Assembly (NCBI GenBank): GCA_964532395.1
Contig: CAZHHS010000002.1
Location: forward strand, 222-32,937
Direction: 5' to 3'
Source of the DNA: an uncultured Desulfobacterales bacterium
GTDB lineage: Bacteria > Desulfobacterota > Desulfobacteria > Desulfobacterales > C00003060
DNA length: 32,716 nucleotides
Part shown: piece by piece, positions 1,399 to 30,476 of the stretch
Layout: each line of letters opens with the position of its first letter
Position numbering within the stretch: the first letter of the stretch is position 1
Made by a program: the position numbers and the translations under genes
The notes under the pieces: generated by a model
Databases searched by the model: none
What the model saw: only the letters and a program-made list of their open reading frames with translations
Told to the model about the DNA's origin: nothing

Positions 1399-2456
1399 TA
1401 TGAATTCTCCTCCTTGTCATTCGCCGTAGCTTCTTCAACCGCTTTCTTCACTTCCACCTCGACAAGCCGTTTATGCTTTAGTTCCGCCTGCTCCAAGGCC
1501 TTCGACAGCTTGGCTTCGGCATCTGCGCTTGCCCTGGTGAGTGCAGACCTCACGGCTTGACGTCTCTCCTCCGCGGCAATCTTGTCCTTTCGTTTCGACA
1601 CTGCATAGATGCCGCCCAGAAGAACAGGCCAGAGACCGGCGATCACCGGAACAGAAGCCAATGCGCCGGAAGTTAGCTTAGGCGCGGCTGTCACGCCCAA
1701 ATCTTCCTGCATCCCCACCTCGCTGAACGGAACGCCCGAGACATACATCCAGCTCGTGCCGCCCATCTCATGTTCACCGTAAATGTGGTCGACATATTGA
1801 TCGGGAAAACTGCGGATACGTTCCCGAGCGATGGTGATCAGGTCCTCTCGTTTTCCAAACGTCAACGCCTCCTTTGGACAGGCTTCCACACATCCAGGCA
1901 ACTTGCCCTTTAAAAGCCTCGGGGTATAGCACATCGTGCACTTCATGATTCTCGGTTCAAGCGGCTCATCGTACTCGTAAGCGGGAACATAGAACGGACA
2001 GGCAATCATACAGTATCGACATCCCACACAAACGGACGCATCATAGGTGACCGCCCCTTCCTCCGTCTTCTCAAACGCCCGGACGAAACACGCCGAGGCG
2101 CAAGCCGGTTCCAAGCAGTGATTACACTGCATCTTGCGATAGTCCGGACCGTCTGTTCCTTCAATAGCGTCATAACTGTTCACCACAGTGTAAGTTCCGG
2201 CATCGGTCCTTCTCTTGTCCTCCAACACCGATAAATCATCAAAGGGTCGTTTCGGGTCGGGTAGCTTATTCACCTCATTACACGCCGCTTCGCATTTCCG
2301 GCATCCAATGCAGCGCGTCATATCGTGAAGCACCCCCAAACTCTCCGGGTAACCCGTGAAATGCTTGTTTCCAGCGGCCCGGGCTGATCGACCCACCGTC
2401 AAAGACATCCCCGCAGCTCCCATCCATCCTAAAAATCTCCGTCGTGATATAGCCAT
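1398..2456 (-). CDS. hmcB: Tat-exported multi-[4Fe-4S] ferredoxin-like subunit with C-terminal TM anchor (HmcB-like)
   Basis: Twin-arginine signal [13 protein letters not shown] lies right after Met36 of the track ORF. Cys clusters: [40 protein letters not shown]...CVEACP. A C-terminal TM helix is followed by a charged tail. I moved the start to ATG 2456 because 2493-2599 is filled by three perfect stem-loops; the track start 2561 is the alternative. Confidence 0.85.
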
Positions 2457-2492
2457 ATCAAAAACCCCTTCAAAAGAAATGCGAGTCAAGGA

Positions 2493-2599
2493 CCACCCGC
2501 AGAGCGGGTGGCTTGAATTTTCGGCCCAAGGCCGAAAAGGCAAAAGCAACCTTGCTTTCATCCTTGCGTTTGCAACCTGGTGCTAATAAGGTTGCAAAC
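2493..2599 (-). other. Three consecutive perfect stem-loops in the hmcA-hmcB intercistronic spacer
   Basis: CCACCCGC-AGA-GCGGGTGG (2493-2511), TTTTCGGCC-CAA-GGCCGAAAA (2518-2538) and GTTTGCAACC-N12-GGTTGCAAAC (2568-2599). Confidence 0.6.
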
Positions 2600-2611
2600 A
2601 ATGATCCTGCC

Positions 2612-4267
2612 CTATTTCTTCTTTTCTTTGTGACATGCCTTACAATCTCGTGGCTTTGGCTTTTCCAATTTCATTTCTTTATGACATCCGAGACACTGTA
2701 TATGGTAGGCGCCCTTCAAACCCGGCCTGAGCAAATTATTGTCGTCAAAAGGTCGGCCGTGGCACCGGGAACACTTGGGTGGTTTCTTTGCCGGCGGGCT
2801 GCCGTGATGGCAACCCTGACACAAAGTTCCCTTATCCCGATGGAAATAGGTCGCCAGTTTCTTGTCCTTCGTCTTCTTAACCAACGCTTTGACGATTTTT
2901 CTGTGTGGGAGCTCAGCTGCCTCATATTGATCAACAAGCGTCTTAATCACCACCTTTTCCGGAATGTCGTCGTCTTTATAAGTCCCCTCCATGGGGGGTC
3001 TTGCCTCAAGCATTTTCTTGGCCACATCCTCGGGCTTCATTCCTGGTTCTACCATCTCCCCCGGGTTCATGTGGCAGGTCCCACAGGCCGACGGGTCGGG
3101 CCTCCCGGTCCGTCCGATAAAGGCATGGCAACCGGCACATTCCTTTTCTTGCTGCCTCTCGTTGTGACACCCCAGGCAACTTTGTTCCCTGTCCGGTTGA
3201 TGCATTGCCTGGGCGAGTTTGATGAAATCGCCGTCCTTATTACCCTCTAGGGTGTGACATTTCTGGCTGCATGAATCGAGGCTTTGATGGTGACAAACAC
3301 GGCAGGTGTCGTTGTAGCCTTCATGGTCCTTGTGATTAAAGGGAACCGGATCCATCAGGACCAGGTCCTTTTTCTTCTCCGCCGGAAGCTCTTTTTTGGG
3401 GCCCTGGATCAGAACGAAATCGGGTTGCTTCCGTTCAATCCGCGGAACCTTTTCAATGGTTTTAATCTGCTCTTGCGCCTGGGGATCATGGCAACCCCTG
3501 CACGCTACCGGGCCGATCGCCTTTTTCTCGACCAGTGTGGGATCCTCGGCCCGTCGCCTTCTGTGGCAGTCGACACATGAAACATGCGATGCCAGGCGTA
3601 TGGACATGCGGTTCTCCTCGGTCTGCGCCTTGTGGCAATACCGGCAGGATCCTTCCTTGTCCTTGGCATAATAGAGTTTCTTCTTGATCTCGTCATACTG
3701 ATGGTGGCACAGACCGCACTTGGTCTCATTCTTCACCTTATCTTTCGTGGCCTCTATATGTCGATAATGCAGCGATTTATCCATTACCATGGGTTGCCAA
3801 GAAGATACGATCTGATTGTCCTCAGGTTCTACGTGACATTTGCCGCAACGCTCCACGGGCCCACTTTTTTGCCCTGCCTTGACATATTCCTTGTGACAGC
3901 TAATGCATTCCGTATGATAGACATCCAAGACCTGCTCCCGACTCGTATCTTCGAGGCGCTTGAATTTCGGCGATAATGCCTTCTTCTCCACCAAGGACGG
4001 TGGACGCTTCGCCTCTAGATGGCATGCCTTGCAATCCTTGTCACGTTTCGCCAGAGTCTCCGTATGCCGGTCATGCAGAAAGACAACCGCCGGTCTTTCA
4101 ATTTCCCCAAATTGTTGGAGTGTATCGATGGTTAGAATGTCGGCTCGGGCCTCCGAAGTGGACACTTGGGGTTCCGAAACCGCCGTATTTCCCACCGCGT
4201 ATACGGCAATGGAGCCTACGGCAACCAGGATACCGGCCAGCCCTAAATAGAATTTTGCTTTTAGCAT
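2612..4267 (-). CDS. hmcA: High-molecular-weight 16-heme periplasmic cytochrome c (HmcA-like)
   Basis: 551 aa with an N-terminal hydrophobic signal/anchor. I counted 15 CxxCH plus 1 CxxxCH (CSQKCH), giving 16 heme-binding sites. Lys-rich. It is followed by hmcB/C/D-like genes. Confidence 0.9.
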   Translation of the reverse strand: MLKAKFYLGLAGILVAVGSIAVYAVGNTAVSEPQVSTSEARADILTIDTLQQFGEIERPAVVFLHDRHTETLAKRDKDCKACHLEAKRPPSLVEKKALSPKFKRLEDTSREQVLDVYHTECISCHKEYVKAGQKSGPVERCGKCHVEPEDNQIVSSWQPMVMDKSLHYRHIEATKDKVKNETKCGLCHHQYDEIKKKLYYAKDKEGSCRYCHKAQTEENRMSIRLASHVSCVDCHRRRRAEDPTLVEKKAIGPVACRGCHDPQAQEQIKTIEKVPRIERKQPDFVLIQGPKKELPAEKKKDLVLMDPVPFNHKDHEGYNDTCRVCHHQSLDSCSQKCHTLEGNKDGDFIKLAQAMHQPDREQSCLGCHNERQQEKECAGCHAFIGRTGRPDPSACGTCHMNPGEMVEPGMKPEDVAKKMLEARPPMEGTYKDDDIPEKVVIKTLVDQYEAAELPHRKIVKALVKKTKDKKLATYFHRDKGTLCQGCHHGSPPAKKPPKCSRCHGRPFDDNNLLRPGLKGAYHIQCLGCHKEMKLEKPKPRDCKACHKEKKK

Positions 4268-4680: not shown

Positions 4681-4690
4681 GTGGTGCACA

Positions 4691-4989: not shown

Positions 4990-5158
4990 ACATTATTTCT
5001 CCATGCAAGCAGAAAATGACAAACCCCAAATATTTTATTCAGTCGGTAATACTCAGACTATATTTTGGAAGGAAGAACGGAATTGTGTTGCCGGAGCGTG
5101 GAAAGCATTCCGGGGGTTGTCACCAGGGAAAGGCGTCCCAGTTCCTCATGGGCACGTC

Positions 5159-5578
5159 CTACTGGACGGTCTCAGGACTTGCGGCGTCTGCCTTCGCTTT
5201 TCGCCGGGCTTCTATGCGTTTCATCGCCCGCTCCAAGGCGATGTCGAGGGCCTCCTGGCTGATCGGCTTGGCCACGAAGTCAGCCGCCTCAAGGGCCTTG
5301 CTTCTGATCGCCAGGTCCTGGTCGCCATAGCCGGTAATCATGATGACCTCCGTATCGTGACGCTCCGTTTTGACCTGGCGAAGAAGCTCCATTCCGTCGC
5401 CTCCCGGCATCTTAATGTCAGCCAGTACGATGGCAGGCAGAAGCCGCCTGAACATCTCCAGAGCCTTTGCCACACTTTCTGCGGTATGGACTTCATAGCC
5501 GGCATCGGTCAAAGAGATGCTTAGCACATTGCGGATCCCCTCTTCATCGTCTACCAACAATATTCTTTCTTTCATCAC
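5159..5578 (-). CDS. Stand-alone CheY-like response-regulator receiver protein
   Basis: 139 aa with LLVDDEE...D(I)KMPGGDG...ITGYGD...KP receiver signature and no output domain. Its start overlaps the kinase stop (ATGA). Confidence 0.9.
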   Translation of the reverse strand: MMKERILLVDDEEGIRNVLSISLTDAGYEVHTAESVAKALEMFRRLLPAIVLADIKMPGGDGMELLRQVKTERHDTEVIMITGYGDQDLAIRSKALEAADFVAKPISQEALDIALERAMKRIEARRKAKADAASPETVQ

Positions 5579-7899: not shown

Positions 7900-8075
7900 G
7901 GGAAATTCCTCGTCTGATAGTGTGATTATGAGGGAATCCTATGCCAGTTCTGATGGTTTCGTCAAGTCCAAGGCCTTTACGGGGCCCACTTGAAGTACAC
8001 GTGTACGTCGATATGTTCACCGCCGCCAACCTCCGGCAAACTCGGCAAGCGTTAGATTTGGGGAAATTGGACACC

Positions 8076-8104
8076 TTGACGGCATATCCCACCGGTAGTA
8101 TGTT
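8076..8104 (+). promoter_or_regulatory. Sigma-70-like promoter for fdhD (TTGACG-17 nt-TATGTT)
   Basis: Hexamers have exact 17-nt spacing, 35 nt upstream of ATG 8139. This supports the shorter fdhD start. Confidence 0.4.
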
Positions 8105-8138
8105 TATTTCAGTATTGCATACCGGAAAGGCTACCGAC

Positions 8139-9020
8139 ATGTCACCGAATCTTTCGAAAGAGGCTGACCGAATCCCCGGTGGTTCGACCCAAACGGTCAG
8201 GGTATGGCCGTTTGAGGGTAAACCGGCGTATCAGGAAGACCAGGAACTGATCGCGGAAGAGCCTTTATCCATCTATGTGGAAGGAAAACCCTATTCCGTC
8301 GTGATGCGTACCCCGGGAGAGGAGAATGCTCACGTAGCCGGTTTTTGTTTGTCCGAAGGGATTGTGGACGGTATGGACGATCTCGCCGCCTTGGACTATT
8401 GCACTGATACGGAAGGCAATGTCGCAACCGTCACCCTCGATTCAAAACGGCGTCATGCGGTGTCTCAGCTTCTGGAAAGACGAGGCTTTGTTAGTCAGAC
8501 CAGTTGCGGGATCTGCGGAAAGGAGATGATCGAGGCGTTACAACAAGCCCTGAGACCGATTCCCAATGCCGGACAATTTACGGCAGGGCGTATCCGCGCA
8601 TGCCTGCAAAGGCTTTCAGAACGTCAGAAACTCTACGCCAAGACACGGGCGTCTCACGCGGCCGCGCTTTTCGATGCGGCCCCGGAAATGCTTGCCATGT
8701 CGGAGGACGTCGGTCGCCACAATGCCTTGGACAAGGCCATCGGGACGGCCTTGATAAACCAAGACCTTGCCAAAGCCTGTCTCGGCATCCTTTCCTCCCG
8801 CATCAGTTACGAGTTGGTCCAAAAAGCAGCCCGAGCTGAAATCCCTATCCTCGTCGGGATGTCACGTCCGACGGCCCTGGCCGTGCAATTGGCCACCGGA
8901 CTCAACATGACCCTCGCCTGCGATAACAAACACGGGGGATTGGCCGTTTACTGCGGCCTTCATCGCATTGTCGGGGCGGGCACCGATCCGGGCGCCGCAC
9001 ACCGCGGCATAAGCCCATGA
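8139..9020 (+). CDS. fdhD: FdhD-family sulfurtransferase (formate dehydrogenase / Mo-bisPGD enzyme maturation)
   Basis: Motifs seen: LSIYVEGKPYSVVMRTPGEE, HVAGFCLSEGIV, SCGICGKE, HAAALFD, EDVGRHNALDKAIG. I moved the start from 7941 to ATG 8139 (GGAAAGG SD, promoter upstream, typical family length). Confidence 0.85.
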   Translation: MSPNLSKEADRIPGGSTQTVRVWPFEGKPAYQEDQELIAEEPLSIYVEGKPYSVVMRTPGEENAHVAGFCLSEGIVDGMDDLAALDYCTDTEGNVATVTLDSKRRHAVSQLLERRGFVSQTSCGICGKEMIEALQQALRPIPNAGQFTAGRIRACLQRLSERQKLYAKTRASHAAALFDAAPEMLAMSEDVGRHNALDKAIGTALINQDLAKACLGILSSRISYELVQKAARAEIPILVGMSRPTALAVQLATGLNMTLACDNKHGGLAVYCGLHRIVGAGTDPGAAHRGISP

Positions 9021-15368: not shown

Positions 15369-17360
15369 TCACACGGCCTCGGCAGTGTCCACCTTTTTAT
15401 GCAGGTCATTTAATCCGGACAGTCGACGACTACGAACCAGAGGTAGATGGAGACCCAATACCGCACTATGCGGATTGCAAAGAAAATCCATGCGCTTTTC
15501 AACCGATCGGAAGGTGGATTCCCCGGATTGAAACCTTTCGATCTGCTCGGCGACGTCCTCAGTGGCCGCCGCTGCCACGTCAAGCCCCAGCCGTTGCGCT
15601 ATTTCCTGTAAGATCTCTCTGTGAAGACGGGACGCCGCCAGGGGAGAAATGACAGGGGAAAGCGTACGCAGGTTCTCCGCGTAATCCACGATCGTACCAT
15701 GACTCTCATAGACCGTGGCAGCGGGAAGTACGAGGTCGGCCTCGCAGGCAAGGCCTGACAAATGCGAACATTGGGCGATCACGAATCCCGTGTTCTCCGG
15801 TCTCGAAACCGCCACGTCTCCCAATGCATATAAGACGTCCGGGCTATCCGTATCGATGGTCGGCTTCCCGGTAATCCCCATCAAGAGCGTGCCTTTTCCG
15901 TTGGCCTCAAAAGGGACGGATAAGACCTGACCCTTTTTCAAGGCCAAATTGCGAGATGCCTGGAAGAAAGCCGGTATCGTCACGATCACCGGCCGATTTG
16001 CCTGGGCGTAAAGCGCCGCCGCCGCTTGCTCGGCTTCATGGTTCACCGACACCGGGTTTTGTTCGCTATTCAGTATTTCGGTCAGGCGCTGAATCGAGGC
16101 GAGCTCGTCCCCGGCAAGGACTGCGTGCGCCACCTGAGCAATCCGTGTATCCGCGGCATTAACGACCACCAGTTTGGTACCACGCCGAACCATGTGTCGC
16201 AGCGTAACGTCCAGTGCAGGAAACACGCCCTCCCATTGGGACGGCGCCAATCCGACCAGCACAACCAGATCCGCCGCCCGAATATCCACCTGTCCCGCAA
16301 TAAGCGACGGCACATCGCCGTATAACCCGACCGTCGAAGACGCCGCCTGAAAGCCGGCCGCCTCGGTCAAGCGGCGAACGGTCAGTAAGTCTTCGTTTAA
16401 CAGATTTCCCGCGGTCACGATTTCCTTGGTTGTGGCCCTTTGACAGGCCTCGATGAGGACAGACAAAGCATCTTCCCAGGCAACCGTTGTAAACGTTCCG
16501 TCAATTTTTTGTAAAGGGGTGCTCACCCGGGTATCATCATCGATACCGTCAAACCCGAATCGGCCGACGGCACAGATATACTCTTTCGCCGTATCGCCGT
16601 CACCGGGGGCGTTTACTTTTTCCACTCTGCCCGCCCGGACGCTTACCGACGTGCTGCACGCGTCCGCACAAGACAGGCATATAGAAGGACGACGGACATA
16701 CTCCCATTCTCTACCCCGGTATCCGCCGGCAGGGACCTCGGTAATGGCATTGACGGGACATACCTCTACACAACTGCCGCAAAAGGTACACCCCGATTCT
16801 TGAAGCGGTCGGTCGGCCGCAGTGGTGACACGGGATCCCACACCTCGGCCAAAAAAATCGAGGACCGACGTGCCCTGGGCCTTACAGACGCGGACACACC
16901 GGCCACACAGAACACAATAGTTGGGGTCTCGACGGATAAGGGTATTGTCTTGGGCCACGGGAAAATCAAACCGCTTTTCAGTAAATGAAGATTTCTTGAG
17001 ACCCAGGTCGTAAGCATATTCCTGTAATCTGCATATACTCGCCTTCGTACAAGTCATGCAGTCCATGGGATGCATAGAAAGGATCAAATCGATGACATAC
17101 CTTCTATGTGTTCGGAGGACTTCGGTTTGCGTACTTACCTCCATGCCGTCCTTGGCCCGTGTGGTGCAAGCCGCCATGGGTCGTTTCAAACCGGCCACCT
17201 CCACCAGGCAGAGTCTGCACGCCCCGATTCCCTTATACCCTTTCAAATGGCAGAGGCTGGGGATGTGGATTCCCGCCTCTTCGGCAGCATCCATTAGCGT
17301 GATGCCTTCCGGCACCTCAAGCACTTGTCCGTCCATTGTAAGTTGTATTGAACCGGCCAT
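15369..17360 (-). CDS. NuoG/HydA-N-terminus-like Fe-S subunit with a degenerate molybdopterin-oxidoreductase domain (no catalytic site seen)
   Basis: It has a 2Fe-2S ferredoxin fold (C...GACRLCLVEV...C), a His/Cys cluster (HPMDCMTCTKASIC) and 2x[4Fe-4S] (CVLCGRCVRVC, CTFCGSCVEVCP). A MopB-type CLSCADAC...C cluster is followed by ICAVGRFGFD. There is no Cys/Sec-His active-site motif, no H-cluster motif and no C-terminal cap domain. Start set at ATG 17360 (GGGAGGA SD); the track start 17417 is the alternative. Confidence 0.8.
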   Translation of the reverse strand: MAGSIQLTMDGQVLEVPEGITLMDAAEEAGIHIPSLCHLKGYKGIGACRLCLVEVAGLKRPMAACTTRAKDGMEVSTQTEVLRTHRRYVIDLILSMHPMDCMTCTKASICRLQEYAYDLGLKKSSFTEKRFDFPVAQDNTLIRRDPNYCVLCGRCVRVCKAQGTSVLDFFGRGVGSRVTTAADRPLQESGCTFCGSCVEVCPVNAITEVPAGGYRGREWEYVRRPSICLSCADACSTSVSVRAGRVEKVNAPGDGDTAKEYICAVGRFGFDGIDDDTRVSTPLQKIDGTFTTVAWEDALSVLIEACQRATTKEIVTAGNLLNEDLLTVRRLTEAAGFQAASSTVGLYGDVPSLIAGQVDIRAADLVVLVGLAPSQWEGVFPALDVTLRHMVRRGTKLVVVNAADTRIAQVAHAVLAGDELASIQRLTEILNSEQNPVSVNHEAEQAAAALYAQANRPVIVTIPAFFQASRNLALKKGQVLSVPFEANGKGTLLMGITGKPTIDTDSPDVLYALGDVAVSRPENTGFVIAQCSHLSGLACEADLVLPAATVYESHGTIVDYAENLRTLSPVISPLAASRLHREILQEIAQRLGLDVAAAATEDVAEQIERFQSGESTFRSVEKRMDFLCNPHSAVLGLHLPLVRSRRLSGLNDLHKKVDTAEAV

Positions 17361-17401
17361 TGATCCTCCCTGACACACCTTTTCATCCACGGTCTGCACA
17401 A

Positions 17402-18013
17402 TCAGTAAACACCGCATTTATACGCTTCAGCAGCGATCTTCGTCGCCGGTTTGTCCGCCACGACAATGGCCCCGGCAGGACATACCTCGAGACAATCCCC
17501 CCTTTTGAAGCATCGTTTCTCCCGGATCTCGAAAGGCGAAAACCCTGTGTCATGCAATGCCGTTTTCTCCATACCCAAAATGGCATTGTATTCACACACG
17601 GCCTTACACTCACCACACATGGTACACCTGTCGGGAACAATCCGATACTCGATGAACGCCTCACATGCCCGGTCCGAGCACTTTCCCTCCGTATGCGCTG
17701 CAAAGGCGTCATATGCCATACATTCCAACAAATAGGCGGCCGTGTTGCCGCCCTTCTTGCACAATGAGCCGACCTGCATATTTTCCGCTATATATCGGAG
17801 GGCAGCCAAATCTCGCTGGTCACCCCGTCCGTCGGCGATGCGAGCCAGCCTGGCTTTTGCCTCAACGGTGCCAAGGGCACAGGGAAAACACCGACCACAC
17901 ATGACCTCTGAAAGAAACCGGTCCACATAGGCGGTACACCTTTGGACGGGGCAGCGCTTTTCCTCCGCCTCTGCTCTTAGCCGGGCATCAATCGTGCGTT
18001 TCTTTGACTCCAC
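17402..18013 (-). CDS. Small Fe-S protein: NuoF-C-terminal-like [4Fe-4S] domain fused to a 2x[4Fe-4S] ferredoxin domain
   Basis: CGRCFPCALGT...(about 40 aa)...SLCKKG mirrors the N3-cluster motif SCGKCxPCR...LC of NuoF. It is followed by CTMCGECKAVCE and CFKRGDCLEVCP. Confidence 0.75.
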   Translation of the reverse strand: MESKKRTIDARLRAEAEEKRCPVQRCTAYVDRFLSEVMCGRCFPCALGTVEAKARLARIADGRGDQRDLAALRYIAENMQVGSLCKKGGNTAAYLLECMAYDAFAAHTEGKCSDRACEAFIEYRIVPDRCTMCGECKAVCEYNAILGMEKTALHDTGFSPFEIREKRCFKRGDCLEVCPAGAIVVADKPATKIAAEAYKCGVY

Positions 18014-18021
18014 ACATCACC

Positions 18022-20361
18022 TCAATAGATCTCACGCGCCATGTAAACCACTTCCGGCAAGAGATAGGACACCAAGTCTCTGTAGGTAATGATACCCGCG
18101 ATCTTATCGTCCTCCACCACCGGCAGGTGCCTCTTCTTCTGGTCCGAAATCACCGACATTGCGGCGCTCACGTCCACGGACGCCTTAAATGTAATCAGGT
18201 TTCGGCTCATTGCGCTACGGATCGGTCGGCTCCCAAAAGCCACCCCCTTGGCTGTGAGATGAACCACGTCTCTTTCCGTAAAAATACCCACCAGCTGGTC
18301 ATCTTCGTCCACGACCAGAACCGCGCCGATGTTTTTATCCACCATAAGCTTAACCGCTTCCGAGATGGGGGTGTCTTGGGAAACGGTATGTACGACTGAG
18401 GGCTTCGATTCCAAAACATCTCGCAGTGTCATATGGACTCTCCTTTCGATGACCTCCAGACTCTCAGCAGGGATCTTGAATTCTTCCGTAAGTTCAAATT
18501 GCCGCTTTTTGAGGATGCGAACCGCGTCGACCGGACAGGCCTCATAGCAAGCTCCGCATTTTGTGCAATACGCCTGGTCCACGAAATAGGCGTCTTTGAC
18601 AACCTTTATGGCGTCGAACGCACAGGCATCTTCACAAAACCCGCAGCGGAAACACTCACCGACGTTTATCACGAAAAAACCGGTTCCTTTACAACTCCCG
18701 GCTCGACAGTATCGGTCATATACGTGTTCCCGATACTCTTCTCGGAAATACTTGATGGCGCTTAAAACCGGGTTGGGCGCCGACTGTCCCAGGCCGCACA
18801 GCGAGCCCTCCTGAACGAAACGCCCCAACTCGACCAGTCGCTTGATGTCTCCCCGTTCGCCCCGGCCTTGGCTGATTTTTTCCAATAGTTGGAGCATTTG
18901 ATAGGTGCCGATCCGGCAGGGCGGACACTTCCCGCACGACTCCGCCTGGGTAAAAGCCAGGAAATAGCGGGCCACATCGACCATACAGGTGTCCTCGTCG
19001 AGAACAACCATGCCGCCCGAACCGACCATGGAACCCACCTTGTTCAAAGAATCAAAGTCGACCGGCATATCCAGATGCTTCTCGGGAATACAGCCCCCGG
19101 ACGGCCCCCCGGTTTGTACCGCTTTAAACCGCTTTCCCCCTTGTATGCCGCCACCAATATCGAAAATGACCTCCCTCAAGGTAATGCCCATCGGAACCTC
19201 GACCAAACCCGTGTTGACCACTTTTCCCGTAAGGGCAAAGACCTTGGTACCCGGGGAGGTCCGAACCCCGATACGGCTGAACCATTTCCCGCCCTTTTCA
19301 ATGATGGGTGGCAGGCATGCGTACGATTCGATGTTGTTCAGATTGGAGGGGTATCCCCAAACCCCGCCGCCCGGATTGGACAGCCGCGGCGGTCTGGGTC
19401 TCGGAAACCCCCGTGCCCCCTCGATGGACGCCACCAGCGCCGTCGATTCACCGCATATGAATGCCCCCGCCCCCTCCCGAATATCCAGGTGCAGGGACAT
19501 CCCGGTCCCCAGAATATTTTCGCCCAGCAAGCCCAACTCCTCGGCTTGGTTGATGGCGATTCTCAGATTCTTCACCGCCCGTGGATATTCATGACGCACG
19601 TAGATGAATCCGTACGATGCCCCGATAGCATACGCACACAGGAGCATCCCCTCGATCAGGCTGTGCGGATCGCCCTCCATGATCGCACGATCCATGAAAG
19701 CACCGGGATCTCCCTCATCGCCGTTGGCAATGACAAACTTCACATCCCCCGGGGCCTTCTTGGCGTGCCGCCACTTGGTACCCGCCGGGAATCCCGCGCC
19801 CCCTCTACCCCGCAAATAGGCCGTCTCGACCTCCCGGAGGACGTCGTCGGGAGTCATGGACCGGAGCGCCTTCTGAATGGCGGTATATCCACCCGTAGCT
19901 ATATAGTGCCGTATGTTCGTCGGATCGATGCGCCCGTTCTTTTTAAGGACTATGCGGTCTTGTTTTCGGTAAAACGGGATAGAAGAGAGCCGCTCGCACG
20001 GCTGTGACGTGTCGCGATCCATATAGAGCAGACGCCGTATCGGCGGCCCGGCAGACACGGCATTGGTAACCAACGCGGCGGCGTCCGATTCTCTCACGCG
20101 CTGATAGAAATACCCTTTGGGGTCGATTTGCACCAGCGGCCCTTTCTGACAAAGCCCTTGACATCCCGTTTTGATTACCTCGACATGGGAACCTTTCCGT
20201 TTGTTTTCCGCCTCAATGCCCTCGACTAACCGACCGGCACCCGAAGCCAGACAGGCAGTCCCCGTACAGACCCGAATGCGTTCCCTGTCCGGAGGGAAAA
20301 CCTCATCACGTAAATATTGGCGCCAGCTATCGAGTTCTTGAACACTCATTGCATATGTCAT
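18022..20361 (-). CDS. NuoF/HydB-like NAD(P)H-binding flavoprotein with N-terminal Trx-like [2Fe-2S], C-terminal 2x[4Fe-4S] and a C-terminal CBS pair
   Basis: N-terminus CTGTAC...CQGLC. Core motifs GRGGAGFPAG, GDEGDPGAF and ESCGKCPPCRIGT...SLCGLGQSAPNP. Ferredoxin motifs CFRCGFCEDAC and CTKCGACYEACP. The last 136 aa form two CBS repeats (ISEAVKLMVDKNIGAVLVVDEDDQLVGIFTERD ; VSAAMSVISDQKKRHLPVVEDDKIAGIITYRD). Confidence 0.9.
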   Translation of the reverse strand: MTYAMSVQELDSWRQYLRDEVFPPDRERIRVCTGTACLASGAGRLVEGIEAENKRKGSHVEVIKTGCQGLCQKGPLVQIDPKGYFYQRVRESDAAALVTNAVSAGPPIRRLLYMDRDTSQPCERLSSIPFYRKQDRIVLKKNGRIDPTNIRHYIATGGYTAIQKALRSMTPDDVLREVETAYLRGRGGAGFPAGTKWRHAKKAPGDVKFVIANGDEGDPGAFMDRAIMEGDPHSLIEGMLLCAYAIGASYGFIYVRHEYPRAVKNLRIAINQAEELGLLGENILGTGMSLHLDIREGAGAFICGESTALVASIEGARGFPRPRPPRLSNPGGGVWGYPSNLNNIESYACLPPIIEKGGKWFSRIGVRTSPGTKVFALTGKVVNTGLVEVPMGITLREVIFDIGGGIQGGKRFKAVQTGGPSGGCIPEKHLDMPVDFDSLNKVGSMVGSGGMVVLDEDTCMVDVARYFLAFTQAESCGKCPPCRIGTYQMLQLLEKISQGRGERGDIKRLVELGRFVQEGSLCGLGQSAPNPVLSAIKYFREEYREHVYDRYCRAGSCKGTGFFVINVGECFRCGFCEDACAFDAIKVVKDAYFVDQAYCTKCGACYEACPVDAVRILKKRQFELTEEFKIPAESLEVIERRVHMTLRDVLESKPSVVHTVSQDTPISEAVKLMVDKNIGAVLVVDEDDQLVGIFTERDVVHLTAKGVAFGSRPIRSAMSRNLITFKASVDVSAAMSVISDQKKRHLPVVEDDKIAGIITYRDLVSYLLPEVVYMAREIY

Positions 20362-20376
20362 CTTTGTCCAAGCCTT

Positions 20377-20862
20377 TTAGGTATCGATGATTCGCTGAAT
20401 CACTTGACCAACCCCGTCACAAGAGAGTTCTCCCACCACGTCGCTGTTGACGGAAATGACGGGAGCCAACCCGCAACACCCGATGCAACTCACCGTTTCC
20501 AAAGTCATGGCCAGATCCGGGGTGGTACCCCCGACCGGCACCTGGAAGCGGTCTTGGAGGAGGGACAGCACCTCGGAAGCCCCCTTCACATGACACGCCG
20601 TACCCATACAGACCTTCACCACTGTCCTGCCTCTCGGTGAAAAGTGGAACTGGTCATAGAAACTGGCCACTCCGTATACCTCCGCCAACGGAATAGACAA
20701 TCTCTGTGCAAGCGCTTGTAATACTTCAGGGGCCAGATATCCCAATTCATCCTGGAGTCGATGGAGAAGAGGAATCAGCAGGCCTCTGTCTCTCGCGAAT
20801 GCAGGGGTTGTTTGGGCCGCTCTTTCCAGGGCGCCACTCATCATCAGTGCGTCGATATCCAT
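20377..20862 (-). CDS. NuoE/HydC-like thioredoxin-fold [2Fe-2S] subunit
   Basis: 161 aa with the CMGTACHVKG...CIGCCGLAP pattern typical of NuoE/HndA/HydC. Confidence 0.9.
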   Translation of the reverse strand: MDIDALMMSGALERAAQTTPAFARDRGLLIPLLHRLQDELGYLAPEVLQALAQRLSIPLAEVYGVASFYDQFHFSPRGRTVVKVCMGTACHVKGASEVLSLLQDRFQVPVGGTTPDLAMTLETVSCIGCCGLAPVISVNSDVVGELSCDGVGQVIQRIIDT

Positions 20863-24907: not shown

Positions 24908-25609
24908 TCATGCCGAACCATCAGAAAGCTTAGATAATGCGGCTCGCGCAAGACCGCTCACCGTGGACGTAACCAATGCATTGTCGACAAAAAGTGAAAT
25001 TTCTCGGTCATCGTCCAGACACCCTTTTAGGTTCTCCCGTGCCGCTTCAACGCCCAACAACCCTGCAGCCCGAGCGGACAGACCTCTGACGGTAGCATCC
25101 TGAAACGCCAGGTGGGGAATCACGCAATCCTTCCCCTCTTTCACCAGGTGAGGCTTTACTTCGGCCACCCGGCCGATCGCCCACAAGGCCCCCCGCTGAA
25201 GGGCCTCATACTCCAGGTAGTTGCGTTCCGGACAAACATAGGAAACCAAAAGGTCGGCGAACTCTTCTCCCAGCCGGTCGTGAACAGCCACCGCCTCCCC
25301 CATCGCCTCCGGAACCCCCCATCCGATCCCTCCGGATTCATCGTTTAACATCCACATAAACCGACGCATGATCACCCGAGCCCCTTCCATATCCTGATCA
25401 GCCAAATTGGCGACCACACGCCCCGCCGCCGTAATCGCCCGCCACCGGATTATCTCCTCGCCGGTCAGAAAAAGGGACATAAGGGGATTGATCACCTGTC
25501 GCGGGGGCTCCCGAAGAAGCACCGACAAGGTATCAGAGAAGTCAGGGGTATGAAGGAGTTCCCGGAGATCTTCCTTGCGTCTTTTCCATTTCCTGGTCGT
25601 TTTCTTCAT
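24908..25609 (-). CDS. HEAT/armadillo-like helical-repeat protein of unknown function
   Basis: 233 aa, basic N-terminus, repeated helical segments (RWRAITAAGRVV, ALQRGALWAIGRVA, VRGLSARAAGLLG). Family not identified with confidence. Confidence 0.55.
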   Translation of the reverse strand: MKKTTRKWKRRKEDLRELLHTPDFSDTLSVLLREPPRQVINPLMSLFLTGEEIIRWRAITAAGRVVANLADQDMEGARVIMRRFMWMLNDESGGIGWGVPEAMGEAVAVHDRLGEEFADLLVSYVCPERNYLEYEALQRGALWAIGRVAEVKPHLVKEGKDCVIPHLAFQDATVRGLSARAAGLLGVEAARENLKGCLDDDREISLFVDNALVTSTVSGLARAALSKLSDGSA

Positions 25610-25729: not shown

Positions 25730-26920
25730 TTACCTCTGGTTCATTATGTACGTATAAGCTGAAAGCGCCGCTTTTGCGCCTTCTCCGGCAGCCACCACGA
25801 TCTGTTTAAACGGCACACTCGTAACATCGCCGCAGGCAAACACCCCCGCCAATCCGGTACGACATTCGGCATCCACCAGAATCTCTCCGACACCGTTTAC
25901 GTTCAGCGTGTCCACCACCATCTCCGAATTCGGACGCAGACCGATTTCAACAAAGATCCCGGACACGGGCAGCTTCTTTACTTCACCACCGTTCACCGAC
26001 CGGATCTCGACTGCTTCCACATTCGATTCGCCCAAAATCCGGATCACTTCATGCTCAAGAAACACCTCAATCTTGTTCGAATGGCTGACTTTGTCTTGCA
26101 GGACCTGATCCCCGGTCAAGGAGGTCAGAGACACCAGGTAAAGCCGGTCGGCCACTTTGGAAAGATCCAGCGCCGCCTCCAGAGCGGAATTCCCGCCCCC
26201 GGCAATCGCCACATCGAGACCGGCAAACAGGGGCGCATCACAGGTAGAACAATACGCCACGCCCATCCCCGTCAATTCCTTTTCGCCGGGGACCCCCAGC
26301 CGTTTGGGCCGCTTGCCCGTCGCAATAATCACCGTTTTGGCAAAATAGATTTCGTCTTCCGACGTCACCACCTGCTTGATCTTGCCGGCCGCAACCAGGC
26401 GGGCTACGTTCACACCCACCTGTTTTTCCAAGTGGTACTTATCGACGTGCTCCTCAAACCGGGTGACCAGCTCCGCCGTATCCATCTGAGTAAACCCCAG
26501 ATAATTGTCGACATCGTAGGCCCACGTAACCTGCCCGCCGATGTCCTGAGTCAAAATCAGGGTTTTCATTAGTTTACGGGCGGCATAAACGGCGGCACTG
26601 AGCCCGGCCGGACCGCCGCCGATGATAATGACGTCATACAGGGTGTCCACCCACCCTTTGTCCTCACCTCCCAACAACCGGCTCAGCCCGCCCGTGGCTT
26701 CCAGATTGACCAGATCACTGTACCCACCGATCGGTTGGTCGGAAACCAGGATCTGGGGCAAGCGCCCGCCGCCGGTTTCCTCCCTCATCTGTGCCCACCC
26801 CTGGGACCCGTATGGCGCGGCTATCACTTCAAACGGAATGCCTTTTTCCTTCAGAAAGGATTTGGCACGATCACAGAAAGGGCATCCCTCGGAAGCATAT
26901 ATCTTTAGACGCCCCACCAC
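25730..26920 (-). CDS. Glutaredoxin-domain fusion to an AhpF/TrxR-type flavoprotein disulfide reductase
   Basis: N-terminal Grx fold with CPFC. FAD motif DVIIIGGGPAGLSAA, redox disulfide CSTCD, second dinucleotide motif IAGGGNSALEAA. The C-terminus (GEILVDAECRTGLAGVFACGDVTSVPFKQIVVAAGEGAKAALSAY) closely resembles AhpF as I recall it. Confidence 0.85.
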   Translation of the reverse strand: MVGRLKIYASEGCPFCDRAKSFLKEKGIPFEVIAAPYGSQGWAQMREETGGGRLPQILVSDQPIGGYSDLVNLEATGGLSRLLGGEDKGWVDTLYDVIIIGGGPAGLSAAVYAARKLMKTLILTQDIGGQVTWAYDVDNYLGFTQMDTAELVTRFEEHVDKYHLEKQVGVNVARLVAAGKIKQVVTSEDEIYFAKTVIIATGKRPKRLGVPGEKELTGMGVAYCSTCDAPLFAGLDVAIAGGGNSALEAALDLSKVADRLYLVSLTSLTGDQVLQDKVSHSNKIEVFLEHEVIRILGESNVEAVEIRSVNGGEVKKLPVSGIFVEIGLRPNSEMVVDTLNVNGVGEILVDAECRTGLAGVFACGDVTSVPFKQIVVAAGEGAKAALSAYTYIMNQR

Positions 26921-26942
26921 ACCTCCGGATAATTAATGACCA

Positions 26943-27215
26943 TCAGTCGGCGTTCAGAGATGAACTTCCTTCAAGGCACATGAGGGCCTGCTCCAGGCTC
27001 TTTTGATCAAACCCGACCATCACTTGATTACAGACCGAGATCACGGGAACCCGGAGGGCCCCGCCCGAGATCGTGCGCATTTCCTCAAGCGCCGCCCTCT
27101 CCGACGTGACATCGTAATCGATAAACTCAACACCTTTTTGCGACAAGAACTCCTTCGCTCGCTTACAGTGCGGTCAAGTCGGTGAGCTGTAGATCTTTAC
27201 TTCTTGATCACTCAT
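26943..27215 (-). CDS. Selenocysteine-containing YruB/NrdH-like glutaredoxin (UxxC active site), 90 codons with in-frame TGA at 27176..27174
   Basis: The track shows only the C-terminal 67 aa from an internal TTG. Extending upstream in frame gives MSDQEVKIYSSPT-U-PHCKRAKEFLSQKGVEFIDYDV..., the canonical Grx beta1-CxxC-alpha1 region with TGA at the first Cys position. The ATG at 27215 has an AAGGAG SD 7 nt upstream, and a hairpin starts 11 nt after the TGA. Confidence 0.7.
27140..27162 (-). promoter_or_regulatory. Candidate bacterial SECIS hairpin
   Basis: The mRNA segment GCGAGCGAAGGAGUUCUUGUCGC starts 11 nt after the UGA. It has a GCGA/UCGC lower stem, bulges, a GAAG-type upper stem and a G/U-containing apical loop. 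Confidence 0.4.
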
Positions 27216-27293
27216 CGAAACACTCCTTACTTCTCAAACTCAATTCGTGTAAAGGGCAAATGCCCGTTGGTCTTATGCGGACCCCCTTTAGTC

Positions 27294-27452
27294 CTACTCC
27301 TTTTCAAAATCCTCTTTGGCCGCCCCACACACGGGACAGGTCCAATCCGCCGGAAGATCTTCAAACTTGGTCCCCGGCTCGATACCGTTGTCCGGATCCC
27401 CCTGGGCCGGATCATACACATAGCCACATACCGTACATACATACTTGTCCAT
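27294..27452 (-). CDS. rub: Rubredoxin (52 aa)
   Basis: Not in the ORF track (<60 aa). The translation [52 protein letters not shown] has the two CxxCG knuckles and the conserved YxYDP / FEDLPxDWxCPxCG signature. GGAAAGGAG SD. Confidence 0.92.
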
Positions 27453-27504: not shown

Positions 27505-28470
27505 TCAACTCCCAACCAAGTCTTTGACTTTTTCCGCGATCTTGTCACGCGTTTCCCGCATGAACTCAACCGGCTTTCCCGCCGGGTCGGCAAAATCCCA
27601 TACCTCCATAGGCGAATCGGCGAAGACGGGACATCCCTTTTCACACCCCATGGTGACCACCAAGTCAGGCACGCCGACACGACCGACAACCGTCTCCAGA
27701 GATTTCGGACTGGCATACCCCATGTCCACACCCTTTTCACTCATCACCTGTTGCATAACCGGATCCACCTGATCGGCAGGGGAATCGCCACCACTATGGG
27801 CTTCAATCTTGTCCCCCGCCATTTGCTCGGCAAAGGCAGCCGCCATCTGGCTACGACAGGCATTTTGGGTACAGACGAAGACGACCTTCTTCCGTTTTAA
27901 AAAGGGGGCCACCATTTGCTCAGCCCTTTTTCGAACATCGTCCAATGCCGTGGGATGACGGGCGATATCTCCGGCGGCTTCAATCTTTCTAAACGTCAGG
28001 GATCCGTCAAAACCGGCTCCGACGGCGTCAAAAAAGTATTTCGCCGTCAGGCTCACCCCCTCGAAGAGGTTCTTTCCCTTGGTCGCCCCCAGGGACAAGA
28101 GTAATCCCGACCGAAAGTCCCTTTTGGGATCGTCGAGCTTGTGGACGTACTTCCTGGCCCAAAGCGCCTGGGTCCGATCAATAAGCCCCTTCATGTATGC
28201 AGTGGCACCATAAAAGAATATCGGCGTAGCCATCACCACGAGGTCCGCACGACGCAAAAGGGGATACATCTTCTGCATATCATCGTCAATCGGACAAAAC
28301 CCTTCCCGCTCGCAGGTGCCGCACTCCACACAGGGGGTGATCTTCTCTCTCGACACATCCACACGCAGACATTCGGCGCCCAGTTGCTCGGCGGTTTCAA
28401 GAAATGTCGAAAGGGCAATACCCGTGTTCCCCTTCACTCGAGGGCTTCCCTGCAACCCAAGAACAAACAT
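27505..28470 (-). CDS. Fusion of an iron-sulfur flavoprotein (Isf/NADPH-dependent FMN reductase fold) and a low-molecular-weight PTPase/ArsC-type arsenate reductase
   Basis: Residues 1 to about 185 are a flavodoxin-like fold with the compact Isf motif CVECGTCEREGFC (Cx2Cx2Cx5C). Residues from about 190 to 321 carry the LMW-PTP P-loop VVFVCTQNACRSQMA (Cx5R-S) and a downstream GCEKGCP Cys pair. Confidence 0.8.
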   Translation of the reverse strand: MFVLGLQGSPRVKGNTGIALSTFLETAEQLGAECLRVDVSREKITPCVECGTCEREGFCPIDDDMQKMYPLLRRADLVVMATPIFFYGATAYMKGLIDRTQALWARKYVHKLDDPKRDFRSGLLLSLGATKGKNLFEGVSLTAKYFFDAVGAGFDGSLTFRKIEAAGDIARHPTALDDVRKRAEQMVAPFLKRKKVVFVCTQNACRSQMAAAFAEQMAGDKIEAHSGGDSPADQVDPVMQQVMSEKGVDMGYASPKSLETVVGRVGVPDLVVTMGCEKGCPVFADSPMEVWDFADPAGKPVEFMRETRDKIAEKVKDLVGS

Positions 28471-28520: not shown

Positions 28521-30476
28521 TTACATCTCCCGGCGGGCCGCCATATCAAACAAGACCCGCTCTCTCGCCTTATCGATACCCAGGGTCTTTCTCTTTTCGT
28601 CAATATGAGAAATCATCAGTCGCGCCATCTCCTGAGGATCCGGGGCAAACCCCCACTTGCCCATACCCTGCGTCTCAAGGCCGCTGAACAACAGCTCATG
28701 GAAACCGGTCTTCTCCACAATGGGGAAGGTAACACCAAAGACCGTATACACCCCGGAGGCCACGAAATAGTGGCCGATCGAAATGGCCTTTTCACTCATC
28801 CACTCCGGTGCCGCCCCCGCCGCCGGGAGTTCGGCAATGCTGTTGCCCAGCCCCCCCTCACGAACCATTTCACTGGCAGCAATGAGAATCCGGCTGTTGT
28901 CGACACAGGATCCGCATCCCAGTACCGGCGGCATACCCACCGTTTCACAAACTTCCGCCAATCCCGCGCCCGCCATCTCGGCAGCCTCGGGACGGTAAAA
29001 TCCCTGTTTGGCCAAGGCGATTTGAGAGCACCCGGTCTGTAAAACCAAGACATCATTTTTGATGAGTTCCTTGACCAACTCCACATGGACCCAGTCTTGT
29101 TTGGCCCGGGGATTGGTACATCCCACCACACCGGCCACCCCGCGGATACGGCCATTGATAATGTTGTCATTGAGTGGCGTATAGGAAGACCGGAAACTGC
29201 CGCCCAGCATATAATTGATGTATTCGTGAGAGAACCCGTGAATCCCTTCGTTTCGGTCCTCCGGAATGTCTACGGGAATTCGGCGATTTTTGAACCGTTC
29301 GATGGCCAACTCCATAATCCGGTCCGTACACTTGCGGGGACTCAGTTCCTCAAATTCGATATGCTCAGCGCCATCGATGTGACACCGGGGGTTGGTGGTG
29401 AAAAACTTGGTGCCGTAGCATTGAGCCACTTTGCTCAAACTCTGCTTGATGCATTGTACGTCCACCCCCATGGCATCCACCGCCCCGGTGATCAAGACGG
29501 CTTCGGTGGACATGAAATTGCCGGCGTGGGGAATTCCATGGCGGGACAACATCTCCGCCCCCGAGCAGCACATCCCCACCAGGTTGATCCCTTCCGCACC
29601 GGCACTTTTAGCCGACTCAAGAAATTGGGGATCGTTTGCCGATGCCAGTATGGACTCAAACAGGTTCGGCTCGTGACCATGGATAATCACATTGACCTGG
29701 TTCTTCTCCAACACGCCCATATTGACATCCCCGGCCGTGGGTACGGGCGTGCCGAAGAGGATATCGGAAATCTCGGTGGCCACCATCGACCCCCCCCACC
29801 CATCGGCCAAGGCCGTGCGGCTGCACTGTCGGGTAATGTTCTCGTAATCCTGGTCCACGCCCATGTGGGTCCGGTGCATGAGTTCCATGATTTCCCGCAT
29901 CGCCCCACGGGGAACTATCCCCTGTTTTCGCCAGGTTTCCAAAGTCGCGGGCGGCACCCGCTTGGCGAACGGAATTTCTCCTTCCACCTGCATATAGGTC
30001 CGCTCCAATTCCTTGTATAAGTCTTCCGCAATCTCCTTTGCGTCACGACCCTCTGTATCGATTTCTACGGATTGAGCCACTTTTTTCAGTTTATCCGTAT
30101 CTTTGATCTTGTACTCGGTGAGTTTTCCCTCCACCACCTCTCTGAATACGTCAAGCATACTCATGCCGTGATCCGTATGTGCCGCCGCGCCACTGGCCAC
30201 CATCCGGGCAAAATTTCTGGCCATAATGGTGTCGATCGTAGCCCCACACACCCCCACCTTGCCGTAGGGATCCTTGGCATTCAACCGACAGGGCCCCATG
30301 GAACAGTGTTTACAACAGGCGGAGTCAGCCCCGATCGGACAGGCCTTCATCGTGGCGGCCCGGTCAAACGCCGTTTCCACCCCGTCAGCTTTGGCCTTCT
30401 CCAACATCTGAGCCGTCGCGTCACATGACGTTACTTCATGAACATTGAGTTGTTTGCGCTTTTCCGTCTTCGCCAT
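28521..30476 (-). CDS. cooS: Anaerobic Ni,Fe carbon monoxide dehydrogenase catalytic subunit
   Basis: 651 aa. The N-terminal D/B-cluster pattern is CPIGADSACCKHCSMGPCRL...C. C-cluster ligand contexts IIHGHEPN, GMCCSG, DVQCI, GCTNPR, TGCS and GCGSCVDNSR are all present. Confidence 0.92.
   Translation of the reverse strand: MAKTEKRKQLNVHEVTSCDATAQMLEKAKADGVETAFDRAATMKACPIGADSACCKHCSMGPCRLNAKDPYGKVGVCGATIDTIMARNFARMVASGAAAHTDHGMSMLDVFREVVEGKLTEYKIKDTDKLKKVAQSVEIDTEGRDAKEIAEDLYKELERTYMQVEGEIPFAKRVPPATLETWRKQGIVPRGAMREIMELMHRTHMGVDQDYENITRQCSRTALADGWGGSMVATEISDILFGTPVPTAGDVNMGVLEKNQVNVIIHGHEPNLFESILASANDPQFLESAKSAGAEGINLVGMCCSGAEMLSRHGIPHAGNFMSTEAVLITGAVDAMGVDVQCIKQSLSKVAQCYGTKFFTTNPRCHIDGAEHIEFEELSPRKCTDRIMELAIERFKNRRIPVDIPEDRNEGIHGFSHEYINYMLGGSFRSSYTPLNDNIINGRIRGVAGVVGCTNPRAKQDWVHVELVKELIKNDVLVLQTGCSQIALAKQGFYRPEAAEMAGAGLAEVCETVGMPPVLGCGSCVDNSRILIAASEMVREGGLGNSIAELPAAGAAPEWMSEKAISIGHYFVASGVYTVFGVTFPIVEKTGFHELLFSGLETQGMGKWGFAPDPQEMARLMISHIDEKRKTLGIDKARERVLFDMAARREM

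Follow-up and report, generated by a model that had tools for sequence, protein, structure and literature searches.

A probable selenocysteine-decoded YruB/Cp9-type redoxin gene in a carbon monoxide dehydrogenase locus of an uncultured Desulfobacterales bacterium

The redoxin gene and its in-frame TGA codon

The DNA stretch analyzed here (hereafter, the window) is a 32,716-nucleotide (nt) segment of contig CAZHHS010000002.1 from the genome of an uncultured Desulfobacterales bacterium (assembly GCA_964532395.1, positions 222 to 32,937). On the minus strand of the window, at 27215..26943, there is a gene for a small glutaredoxin-like protein that is interrupted by an in-frame TGA codon and appears to be a genuine selenocysteine (Sec)-decoded redoxin gene, an interpretation to which we assign a probability of about 0.8. 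The gene belongs to a string of minus-strand genes that also encodes, among others, a rubredoxin, a flavoprotein disulfide reductase with a fused glutaredoxin domain and the catalytic subunit of carbon monoxide dehydrogenase (CODH). Translation from the ATG at 27215 yields MSDQEVKIYSSPT-(TGA)-PHCKRAKEFL..., the complete product being MSDQEVKIYSSPT-(TGA)-PHCKRAKEFLSQKG...LNAD. The single in-frame TGA (27176..27174) occupies the position of the first cysteine in the CxxC motif of glutaredoxins (SSPT-U-PHC), and the start codon is preceded by a Shine-Dalgarno (SD) sequence (27228..27223), both as described in the original prediction.

As also noticed there, the listing of open reading frames (ORFs) contains only a 67-residue, TTG-initiated piece of this gene (26943..27146). 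This fragment alone scores 20.4 bits against the Pfam Glutaredoxin profile (PF00462), below the gathering score of 22.9, and covers only profile positions 19-55. In contrast, the read-through product of 90 residues, which contains the C/UxxC motif, scores 47.5 bits with X at the position of the stop codon and 57.5 bits with cysteine; in the latter form, residues 6-61 align with profile positions 1-55 (E=1.6e-15). Read-through thus restores profile positions 1-18, so that a complete thioredoxin-fold redoxin is obtained only if the UGA is decoded. The spurious 67-residue call is explained by an AAGGAG sequence within the hairpin discussed below (27146..27157, minus strand), which stands 3 nt before the internal TTG chosen by ORF finders; most relatives have AAAGAG instead.

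Conservation of the TGA codon and Sec/Cys replacement among homologs

The comparative set consisted of DNA from 86 related loci; the orthologous gene was identified in 66 of these, which together with the window gives 67 loci. The closest relatives of the window gene come from metagenome-assembled genomes of Desulfobacterales. The active-site codon is TGA in 57 of the 67 loci and a cysteine codon (TGT or TGC) in the remaining 10, in agreement with the claim that the TGA takes the place of the first cysteine of the CPxC motif. The ATG, an SD-like sequence and the upstream peptide [IV]K[IV][YF]xxPx are retained in all 67 loci. Reading frame, start codon and upstream peptide are also conserved throughout the 57 TGA-containing loci, which span about 57-96% protein identity; the original prediction had named lack of conservation upstream of the TGA as an outcome that would speak against it, and the opposite is observed. 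The closest pairs of Sec and Cys forms are 87-93% identical (e.g., L020/L038 and L053/L062). Immediately 5' of the TGA, the proline at codon -2 is present in all 57 Sec forms but is encoded by four different codons, and the threonine at codon -1, present in 54 of the 57, likewise by four. The combination of fixed amino acids with free third positions indicates that purifying selection acts on the translated peptide.

Searches of protein databases returned two classes of homologs. The first includes full-length proteins of 85-95 residues with the motif TPTCP[YHF]CK, among which the Cys-containing homologs P0002-P0025 align with the window protein across the first 24 residues, as had been anticipated. 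The second, much larger class consists of entries of 68-73 residues that start with MAKEFLS, at a methionine located five codons past the Sec codon. Such entries represent Sec forms called too short, with strand beta-1 and the active site missing. More than 100 database clusters (P0026-P0120 and P0136-P0234) are of this length, 68-73 residues, and carry the JGI or NCBI name 'glutaredoxin' or 'glutaredoxin family protein'. Several public entries (P0022, P0028, P0030, P0108, P0123 and P0134) have tryptophan at the Sec position (TWPHC or GWPYC).

Two additional cysteines are found in nearly all members of the family, namely Cys62 (27030..27032, minus strand; VC62NQV) in 65 of the 67 loci and Cys80 (26976..26978, minus strand; MC80LE) in 66 of the 67. 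They are common to the Sec and Cys forms but are absent from the nearest relative with a solved structure (7c10) and from the distant homologs P0035 and P0119. They may make up a second disulfide, or a metal site, at the distal end of the fold.

A SECIS-like element downstream of the TGA codon

In the standard bacterial pathway, summarized in PMC13188914, a hairpin called the SECIS (Sec insertion sequence) element recruits the elongation factor SelB carrying Sec-tRNA(Sec) to the UGA codon. We infer that the same would apply to the redoxin mRNA, in which a hairpin 15-37 nt past the UGA, with a G in the apical loop, would direct the insertion of Sec at the UGA.

In the 57 Sec forms, codons +6 to +11 downstream of the TGA (Ala-Lys-Glu-Phe-Leu-Ser) show hardly any variation at synonymous sites. 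The glutamate at +8 is encoded by GAG in 57 of 57, compared to 31 GAG and 26 GAA for the glutamate at +31; the leucine at +10 is CTT in 53 of 57 (0.47 bits, compared to 2.29 bits for the leucine at +29); the serine at +11 is TCG in 46 of 54 (0.76 bits, compared to 2.11 bits for the serine at -4); and the alanine at +6 is encoded by GCG or GCA only. With the U of the UGA numbered 1, the resulting consensus GCGAARGAGUUYCUUUCGC can fold into a 7-bp helix (nt 19-25 paired with 31-37) with the loop A-G-U-U-Y at nt 26-30. Among the 53 distinct Sec sequences, 90.8% of the helix cells are paired, compared to 22-70% in controls with the 3' arm shifted by 1-3 nt. When each sequence is set against 200 synonymous recodings of itself, 40 of the 57 Sec forms rank in the top 5% by stability; the mean minimum free energy (MFE) of the Sec forms is -8.8 kcal/mol.

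The synonymous constraint on the hairpin codons is specific to the Sec forms. GAG at position +8 is found in 7 of the 10 Cys forms compared to all Sec forms (Fisher p=0.0025), and the mean MFE of the Cys forms is -5.3 kcal/mol (Mann-Whitney p=5e-4), although these p-values ignore phylogenetic non-independence and are indicative only. A stability of -7.5 kcal/mol is reached by 45 of the 57 Sec forms and by 2 of the 10 Cys forms.

The published criteria for bacterial SECIS (bSECIS) elements comprise the loop size, a G at loop position 1 or 2 with G or U after it, and a distance of 16-37 nt from the UGA to the loop (PMC13188914). The family element, in which this distance is 22 nt, falls within these limits with respect to loop size, position of the G and spacing. 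Like the bacterial consensus, it is a hairpin inside the ORF with a loop of 4-5 nt, a G at the first or second loop position followed by G or U, and the loop 20-22 nt away from the UGA; it shares no sequence resemblance with the SECIS element of Escherichia coli fdhF and is not represented by an Rfam model.

The copy of the element in the window folds in a different register. The hairpin starting 11 nt past the UGA, which was noted in the original prediction, is indeed the MFE fold of the window RNA: GCGA at nt 15-18 pairs with UCGC at nt 34-37, followed by an inner GAA:UUC helix and the loop GGAG, that is, a stem of 4+3 bp with an interior loop, a 20-nt spacing and a free energy of -5.9 kcal/mol. 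This fold is not significant on its own (see below), and the helix conserved in the family starts 15 nt past the UGA. The GCGA arm derives from a subclade-specific arginine codon, CGA, and pairs with the same 3' arm, whereas the family register is weak in the window, with an A.G mismatch and two G.U pairs, because the leucine at +10 is encoded by TTG. Thus, the register described originally is probably a lineage variant of the family element.

Family affiliation of the redoxin

For thioredoxin-fold oxidoreductases of anaerobes, exchange of Sec for Cys belongs to the textbook knowledge of the field. Sec-containing glutaredoxins (Sec-Grx; PF00462, UxxC) in particular are listed among the experimentally verified prokaryotic selenoproteins, with WP_010943784.1 as the representative (PMC13188914), and have been reported in genome surveys of Geobacter sulfurreducens, Alkaliphilus metalliredigenes and Moorella thermoacetica (PMC1794560). 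The Sec-Grx of Clostridium oremlandii has been studied experimentally (Kim et al. 2011, cited in PMC13188914) and, according to the title of that reference, reduces a selenoprotein MsrA. The order Desulfobacterales is among the most selenoprotein-rich groups of bacteria (PMC13326102). The novelty implied by the original prediction is therefore overstated: with Sec-Grx being an established family, recognition of the window gene is a sound correction of the annotation rather than a discovery, and the gene is almost certainly a mis-annotated further case of a known kind of selenoprotein. The window protein resembles the known Sec-Grx in its small thioredoxin fold, match to Pfam Glutaredoxin, UxxC motif with Sec in the first position, existence of Cys homologs and a SECIS-like element within the ORF just 3' of the UGA. 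It differs from the published descriptions in its similarity to YruB/Cp9, the presence of C62 and C80, and the linkage to genes for rubredoxin and an AhpF-like reductase.

The best NCBIfam model for the protein is YruB (TIGR02196). The traits of YruB proteins include the N-terminal motif [IV]-x-[ILV]-[YF]-[ST], a conserved proline, a Gly-Phe pair and a length of 75-80 residues (PMC3720550). The corresponding motifs of the window redoxin are VKIYS, V-P57-V (the cis-proline) and V-G68-F69.

Three other assignments were considered and rejected. The Uxx-star model (NF041212) gives a marginal score of 67.5 bits compared to a cut-off of 66, over profile positions 1-67 of 70, and NCBI labels the Cys form P0135 accordingly. 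The 'star' presumably denotes a C-terminal U-x-x-stop, going by the family names, but the window protein ends in SSSLNAD followed by the stop codon, with no Sec or Cys three residues before it and profile positions 68-70 unmatched. NrdH (TIGR02194) scores 38.7 bits compared to a cut-off of 85.75; the UPHC motif differs from the C-[VMI]-Q-C motif of NrdH (PMC3720550), and there are no nrd genes nearby. Finally, the selenoprotein homologous to the N-terminal domain of AhpF (TIGR02187) shows no match at E<=1e-3, and the window protein is a single 90-residue domain.

The conserved redox module and its predicted function

The CODH and rubredoxin context of the redoxin gene, already pointed out in the original prediction, holds: both genes score above the respective cut-offs (Table 1) and belong to the same gene string, which runs on the minus strand without terminator-like breaks; the counts of predicted promoters and terminators in the operon are at background level and uninformative. 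The homologs fall into two clades. In clade 1, which includes the window, the reductase gene is directly downstream of the redoxin gene in 30 of the 32 loci with sufficient flanking sequence, and the rubredoxin gene is directly upstream in 18 of 33 loci. In L012, the reductase (4261-5185, 308 residues, starting with MYDVIIIGGG) lacks the glutaredoxin domain, which indicates that the fused domain is optional, and is followed by a flavodiiron protein (5188-6385) consisting of an ODP beta-lactamase fold and a flavodoxin domain. Other neighbors in clade 1 include a desulfoferrodoxin-like protein (superoxide reductase) and an AhpC/TSA peroxiredoxin in L049, and rubrerythrin-family proteins in L017 and L066. 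Flavodiiron proteins, superoxide reductases, peroxiredoxins and rubrerythrins are the usual oxygen and peroxide defense set of anaerobes. Linkage of CooS to the redoxin is limited to the window, L001, L007, L008 and L066. Clade 2 (25 loci among L047 and L054-L086, with the motif UPYC and a characteristic ...SGARSVPVI[SA]AC... segment) comprises standalone genes, convergent with uvrA in 16 cases; with neither a reductase nor a rubredoxin nearby, the reductant for these proteins must be encoded elsewhere. In L075, the clade 2 gene (4001-4261) is preceded by a gamma-glutamyltranspeptidase-like gene.

The closest characterized counterpart of the clade 1 module appears to be the Cp34/Cp9/Cp20 system of Clostridium pasteurianum, in which Cp9 (YruB) receives electrons from Cp34, which is TrxR-like and depends on NADH, and delivers them to the peroxiredoxin Cp20, and a rubredoxin is co-encoded (Reynolds, Meyer and Poole 2002, as summarized in PMC3720550). 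The similarity includes YruB as the best model for the redoxin, the VKIYS, cis-proline and GF motifs, and a TrxR/AhpF-like reductase and a rubredoxin in the same operon; L049, and only L049, additionally has an AhpC/TSA peroxiredoxin after the module. In contrast to Cp9, the nucleophile of the window redoxin would be Sec, and the protein, at 90 residues, has a C-terminal extension of about 10 residues that contains Cys80. The reductase of the module, unlike Cp34, usually possesses an extra N-terminal glutaredoxin domain. Unlike the clostridial operon, the window operon encodes CooS, SufBC-like proteins and a fusion of FMN-reductase and ArsC-like domains but no peroxiredoxin. The downstream flavoprotein resembles AhpF in its FAD/NAD(H)/CxxC module, the closest structure in PDB being the C-terminal module of AhpF (1fl2, E=3e-71; TIGR03140, 315 bits), and in having an N-terminal thioredoxin-fold domain with a CxxC motif; it differs in possessing a single glutaredoxin domain instead of a double thioredoxin fold, in scoring below the equivalog cut-off of 502.9 and in the interposition of a separate small Sec redoxin.

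Conserved synteny and the analogy with the clostridial system suggest the following mechanism. The nucleophile would be U14 of the U14-P-H-C17 site, such that the redoxin would cycle between the selenol/thiol form and the selenenylsulfide. The downstream flavoprotein would re-reduce the U14-C17 selenenylsulfide, probably via its own CPFC domain, and we infer that the redoxin would pass the electrons on to thiol-dependent clients such as peroxiredoxins. Coupling of the redoxin to the adjacent reductase thus appears reasonably likely. Together with the rubredoxin, the redoxin would belong to an oxygen and peroxide defense module, which in the lineage of the window would share an operon with CODH and the FMN-reductase/ArsC-like fusion; the ArsC-like domain encoded two genes upstream is a candidate client. 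A more speculative scenario, with the odds against it, is that the rubredoxin, the Sec redoxin and the glutaredoxin-fused AhpF-like reductase constitute a version of the Cp34/Cp9/Cp20 peroxide-defense relay that depends on selenium, occurs widely in Desulfobacterota and, in this lineage, has been wired into the CODH operon, with CO- or flavin-derived electrons feeding a chain of three successive redox centers from CSTC via CPFC to the selenol of UPHC, to which C62/C80 might add a fourth center.

Evidence against the proposed interpretation and alternative explanations

Several observations weigh against Sec decoding of the window gene or against its proposed function. No selA, selB, selC or selD and no other selenoprotein genes are found within the 32.7-kb window, and a search for tRNA-Sec detected none in the window or in the related loci retrieved. 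There is no compensatory covariation in the helix among the 53 distinct sequences, because the helix is nearly invariant, which is why synonymous-site and recoding tests were used instead; RNAalifold, applied to the 53 Sec-form sequences, did not recover the hairpin and predicted only a trivial 3-bp helix. In the SECIS check suggested in the original prediction, the agreement with the published loop and spacing limits and the Sec-specific constraint came out in favor; Rfam gave no match, either across the whole window at gathering thresholds or within 26900-27300 at E<=10. The window copy of the hairpin is weak. Together with those of L001 and L007, it accounts for three of the six weakest among the 57 Sec forms; folding of the 67-nt segment that begins with the UGA is not better than that of shuffled sequences (z=0.19); equal or greater stability is reached by 13% of the synonymous recodings; the family register reaches only -3.1 kcal/mol; and the hairpin alone falls short of the bSECIS criterion of -7.5 kcal/mol, -11.2 kcal/mol being attained only with a lower stem (nt 2-10 paired with 43-53), which is not counted as part of the element because it is not conserved in L008. 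With respect to the function, the score of the redoxin against the YruB model (77.8 bits) is below the cut-off of 88.55, and the window operon contains no peroxiredoxin gene. At residues ~255-275, the reductase reads LYLVSLTSLTGDQ, compared to VTLLEFAPEMKADQ in AhpF, with a serine opposite the glutamate of the LLEF segment of AhpF; the thioredoxin reductase of E. coli has HLIHRRDGFR at this position. With neither the acidic residue of NADH-type enzymes nor the arginine pair of NADPH-type enzymes, the electron donor of the reductase may not be a pyridine nucleotide.

The absence of a peroxiredoxin gene and the presence of an ArsC-like domain two genes upstream would also fit a selenoprotein that functions as a classical glutathione-dependent glutaredoxin or serves another client, such as that domain, rather than as a carrier in a Cp34/Cp9-type relay. 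The similarity to Pfam Glutaredoxin and to Grx3 (TIGR02181), the standalone organization of the clade 2 genes without a reductase and the activity of the C. oremlandii Sec-Grx on MsrA, as given in the title cited in PMC13188914, are all compatible with such a role. Nevertheless, this explanation seems rather unlikely considering that the YruB model outscores the Grx3 model (54.2 bits), that the linkage to the reductase in clade 1 extends to the version that lacks its own glutaredoxin domain, and that the linkage to rubredoxin mirrors the organization of the C. pasteurianum operon outlined in PMC3720550.

The weakness of the window hairpin raises the alternative that, while the relatives carry a genuine selenoprotein gene, the SECIS element has decayed in the lineage of the window, L001 and L007, with Sec insertion becoming inefficient and the gene drifting toward loss or replacement by Cys. 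In this lineage, the near-invariant leucine codon CTT is replaced by TTG or CTG, which creates the A.G mismatch, and L001 and L007, which are 96% identical to the window at the protein level, have hairpins of only -5.7 kcal/mol each, compared to the family mean. However, the window, L001, L007 and L008 all retain an intact TGA, start codon, SD sequence and N-terminal peptide even though protein identity is 78-96%; the GAG codon that carries the loop G is kept; and the CGA codon of the subclade supplies the alternative 5' arm for the same 3' arm. Furthermore, bSECIS elements in general are heterogeneous (PMC13188914). Decay of the element is accordingly improbable.

Still less credible is a pseudogene in which the active-site Cys codon has been destroyed by a nonsense mutation, leaving at most a non-functional 67-residue fragment. 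Gene finders indeed call only this fragment, with AAGGAG upstream of the TTG, but a 3-nt spacing is too short for bacterial initiation, conservation of the internal start is lacking, with ATG at a different codon and AAAGAG in place of AAGGAG in most relatives, and the fragment, which contains neither strand beta-1 nor the active site, scores under the Pfam threshold; the presence of the same TGA in 57 loci, with frame, start and upstream peptide conserved, effectively refutes this explanation. Equally hard to sustain is the decoding of the UGA as Trp or Cys, by a reassigned code or near-cognate read-through: the public entries with Trp at this position could be cited in its favor, but the contig underlying P0030 (L087:36-293) reads TGA there, translated under genetic code 4, TGA is the commonest stop in the window (11 of 25 genes, of which only the redoxin gene contains an in-frame TGA), which excludes a reassigned code, 79 ordinary TGG codons are in use, and a redox-inert Trp as the nucleophile of a CxxC fold would make no biochemical sense and leave the Sec-specific constraint on the RNA unexplained.

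Implications for annotation

The interpretation of the window gene as a Sec-decoded redoxin gene has practical consequences for genome annotation. With this gene and hundreds of relatives stored in public databases as 'glutaredoxin family' fragments of 67-73 residues without the active site, and a few with Trp in place of Sec, counts of the selenoproteome of Desulfobacterota and reconstructions of redox pathways miss them, and on short metagenome contigs a selenoprotein gene can be 'rescued' unnoticed by translation with an incorrect amino acid. The clostridial system of a TrxR-like protein, Cp9 and peroxiredoxin would be extended to a Sec form, and the natural series of Sec and Cys forms (up to 93% identical) with a short, defined SECIS-like element could serve tests of the catalytic advantage of Sec and of the requirements for SelB binding outside Enterobacteria. 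The finding opens no new question. It goes modestly beyond the literature consulted in three respects: the tight, widespread linkage of a Sec form of the YruB/Cp9-type redoxin with an AhpF-like reductase and rubredoxin in Desulfobacterota, the compact consensus SECIS-like element of this redoxin family, and C62 and C80, which are lacking in Cp9-like proteins such as 7c10.

Other genes in the window

Table 1. Features of the redoxin gene and its neighborhood in the window.
Feature	Coordinates	Strand	Comment
Probable Sec glutaredoxin-like (YruB/Cp9-type) redoxin, 90 residues	26943..27215	minus	coding sequence includes TGA stop 26945..26943; orthologs in 66 other loci
Start codon ATG	27215..27213	minus	read in the window
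Shine-Dalgarno sequence AAGGAG	27223..27228	minus	7-nt spacer to ATG; equivalent AAGGAG/GGAGG before the conserved ATG in related loci
In-frame UGA, probably read as Sec (U14 of the U-P-H-C site)	27174..27176	minus	TGA in 57 loci (window included), TGT/TGC Cys in 10
SECIS-like hairpin	27140..27162	minus	nt 15-37 from the U of UGA; synonymous constraint at codons +6..+11
SufC-like ATPase	31706-32461	minus	22-nt overlap with the SufB/D-like gene
SufB/D-like protein	30507-31727	minus	best model SmsB (minimal SUF-like), far below cut-off
CooS, Ni,Fe-CO dehydrogenase catalytic subunit	28521..30476	minus	TIGR01702, 592.8 bits vs cut-off 478
FMN-reductase and low-molecular-weight phosphatase/ArsC-like fusion	27505..28470	minus	Pfam FMN_red and LMWPc; TIGR02689 and related models below cut-offs
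Rubredoxin, 52 residues	27294..27452	minus	NF045768, 107.6 bits vs cut-off 90; immediately upstream of the redoxin
AhpF/TrxR-like flavoprotein disulfide reductase (CSTC) with N-terminal glutaredoxin domain (CPFC)	25730..26920	minus	Pfam Pyr_redox_2 and Glutaredoxin; starts 22 nt past the redoxin stop
DVU0298-family HEAT-repeat protein	24908..25609	minus	NF045662, 226.8 bits vs cut-off 75

Apart from the redoxin gene, a scan of the window for genes interrupted by TGA produced 251 mechanical candidates, none of them convincing. An Hmc-like set on the minus strand (226..4267) encodes a 551-residue multihaem cytochrome c together with a 4Fe-4S protein and a membrane subunit resembling NrfD. A second minus-strand cluster (15369..20862) encodes NuoE/NuoF-like proteins and a 682-residue molybdopterin-type oxidoreductase, with an FdhD gene nearby (7941..9020). 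No in-frame TGA is found in any of these.

Within the gene string that contains the redoxin, the SufC-like and SufB/D-like proteins, whose genes are directly upstream of cooS, may be a pair for Fe-S or Ni-Fe cluster maturation dedicated to CODH. The protein encoded between CooS and the rubredoxin is an unusual fusion of an NADPH-dependent FMN-reductase domain (residues 1-109) and an LMW-phosphatase/ArsC-like domain (residues 196-318, with the motif CTQNACRS); its gene is syntenic in L001, L007, L008, L010, L011, L019 and L045, and the Sec redoxin might have the fusion protein as a client. The gene of the DVU0298-family HEAT-repeat protein, which follows the reductase gene, is syntenic in L001, L007-L010, L012 and L013, and its product may be part of the redoxin module.

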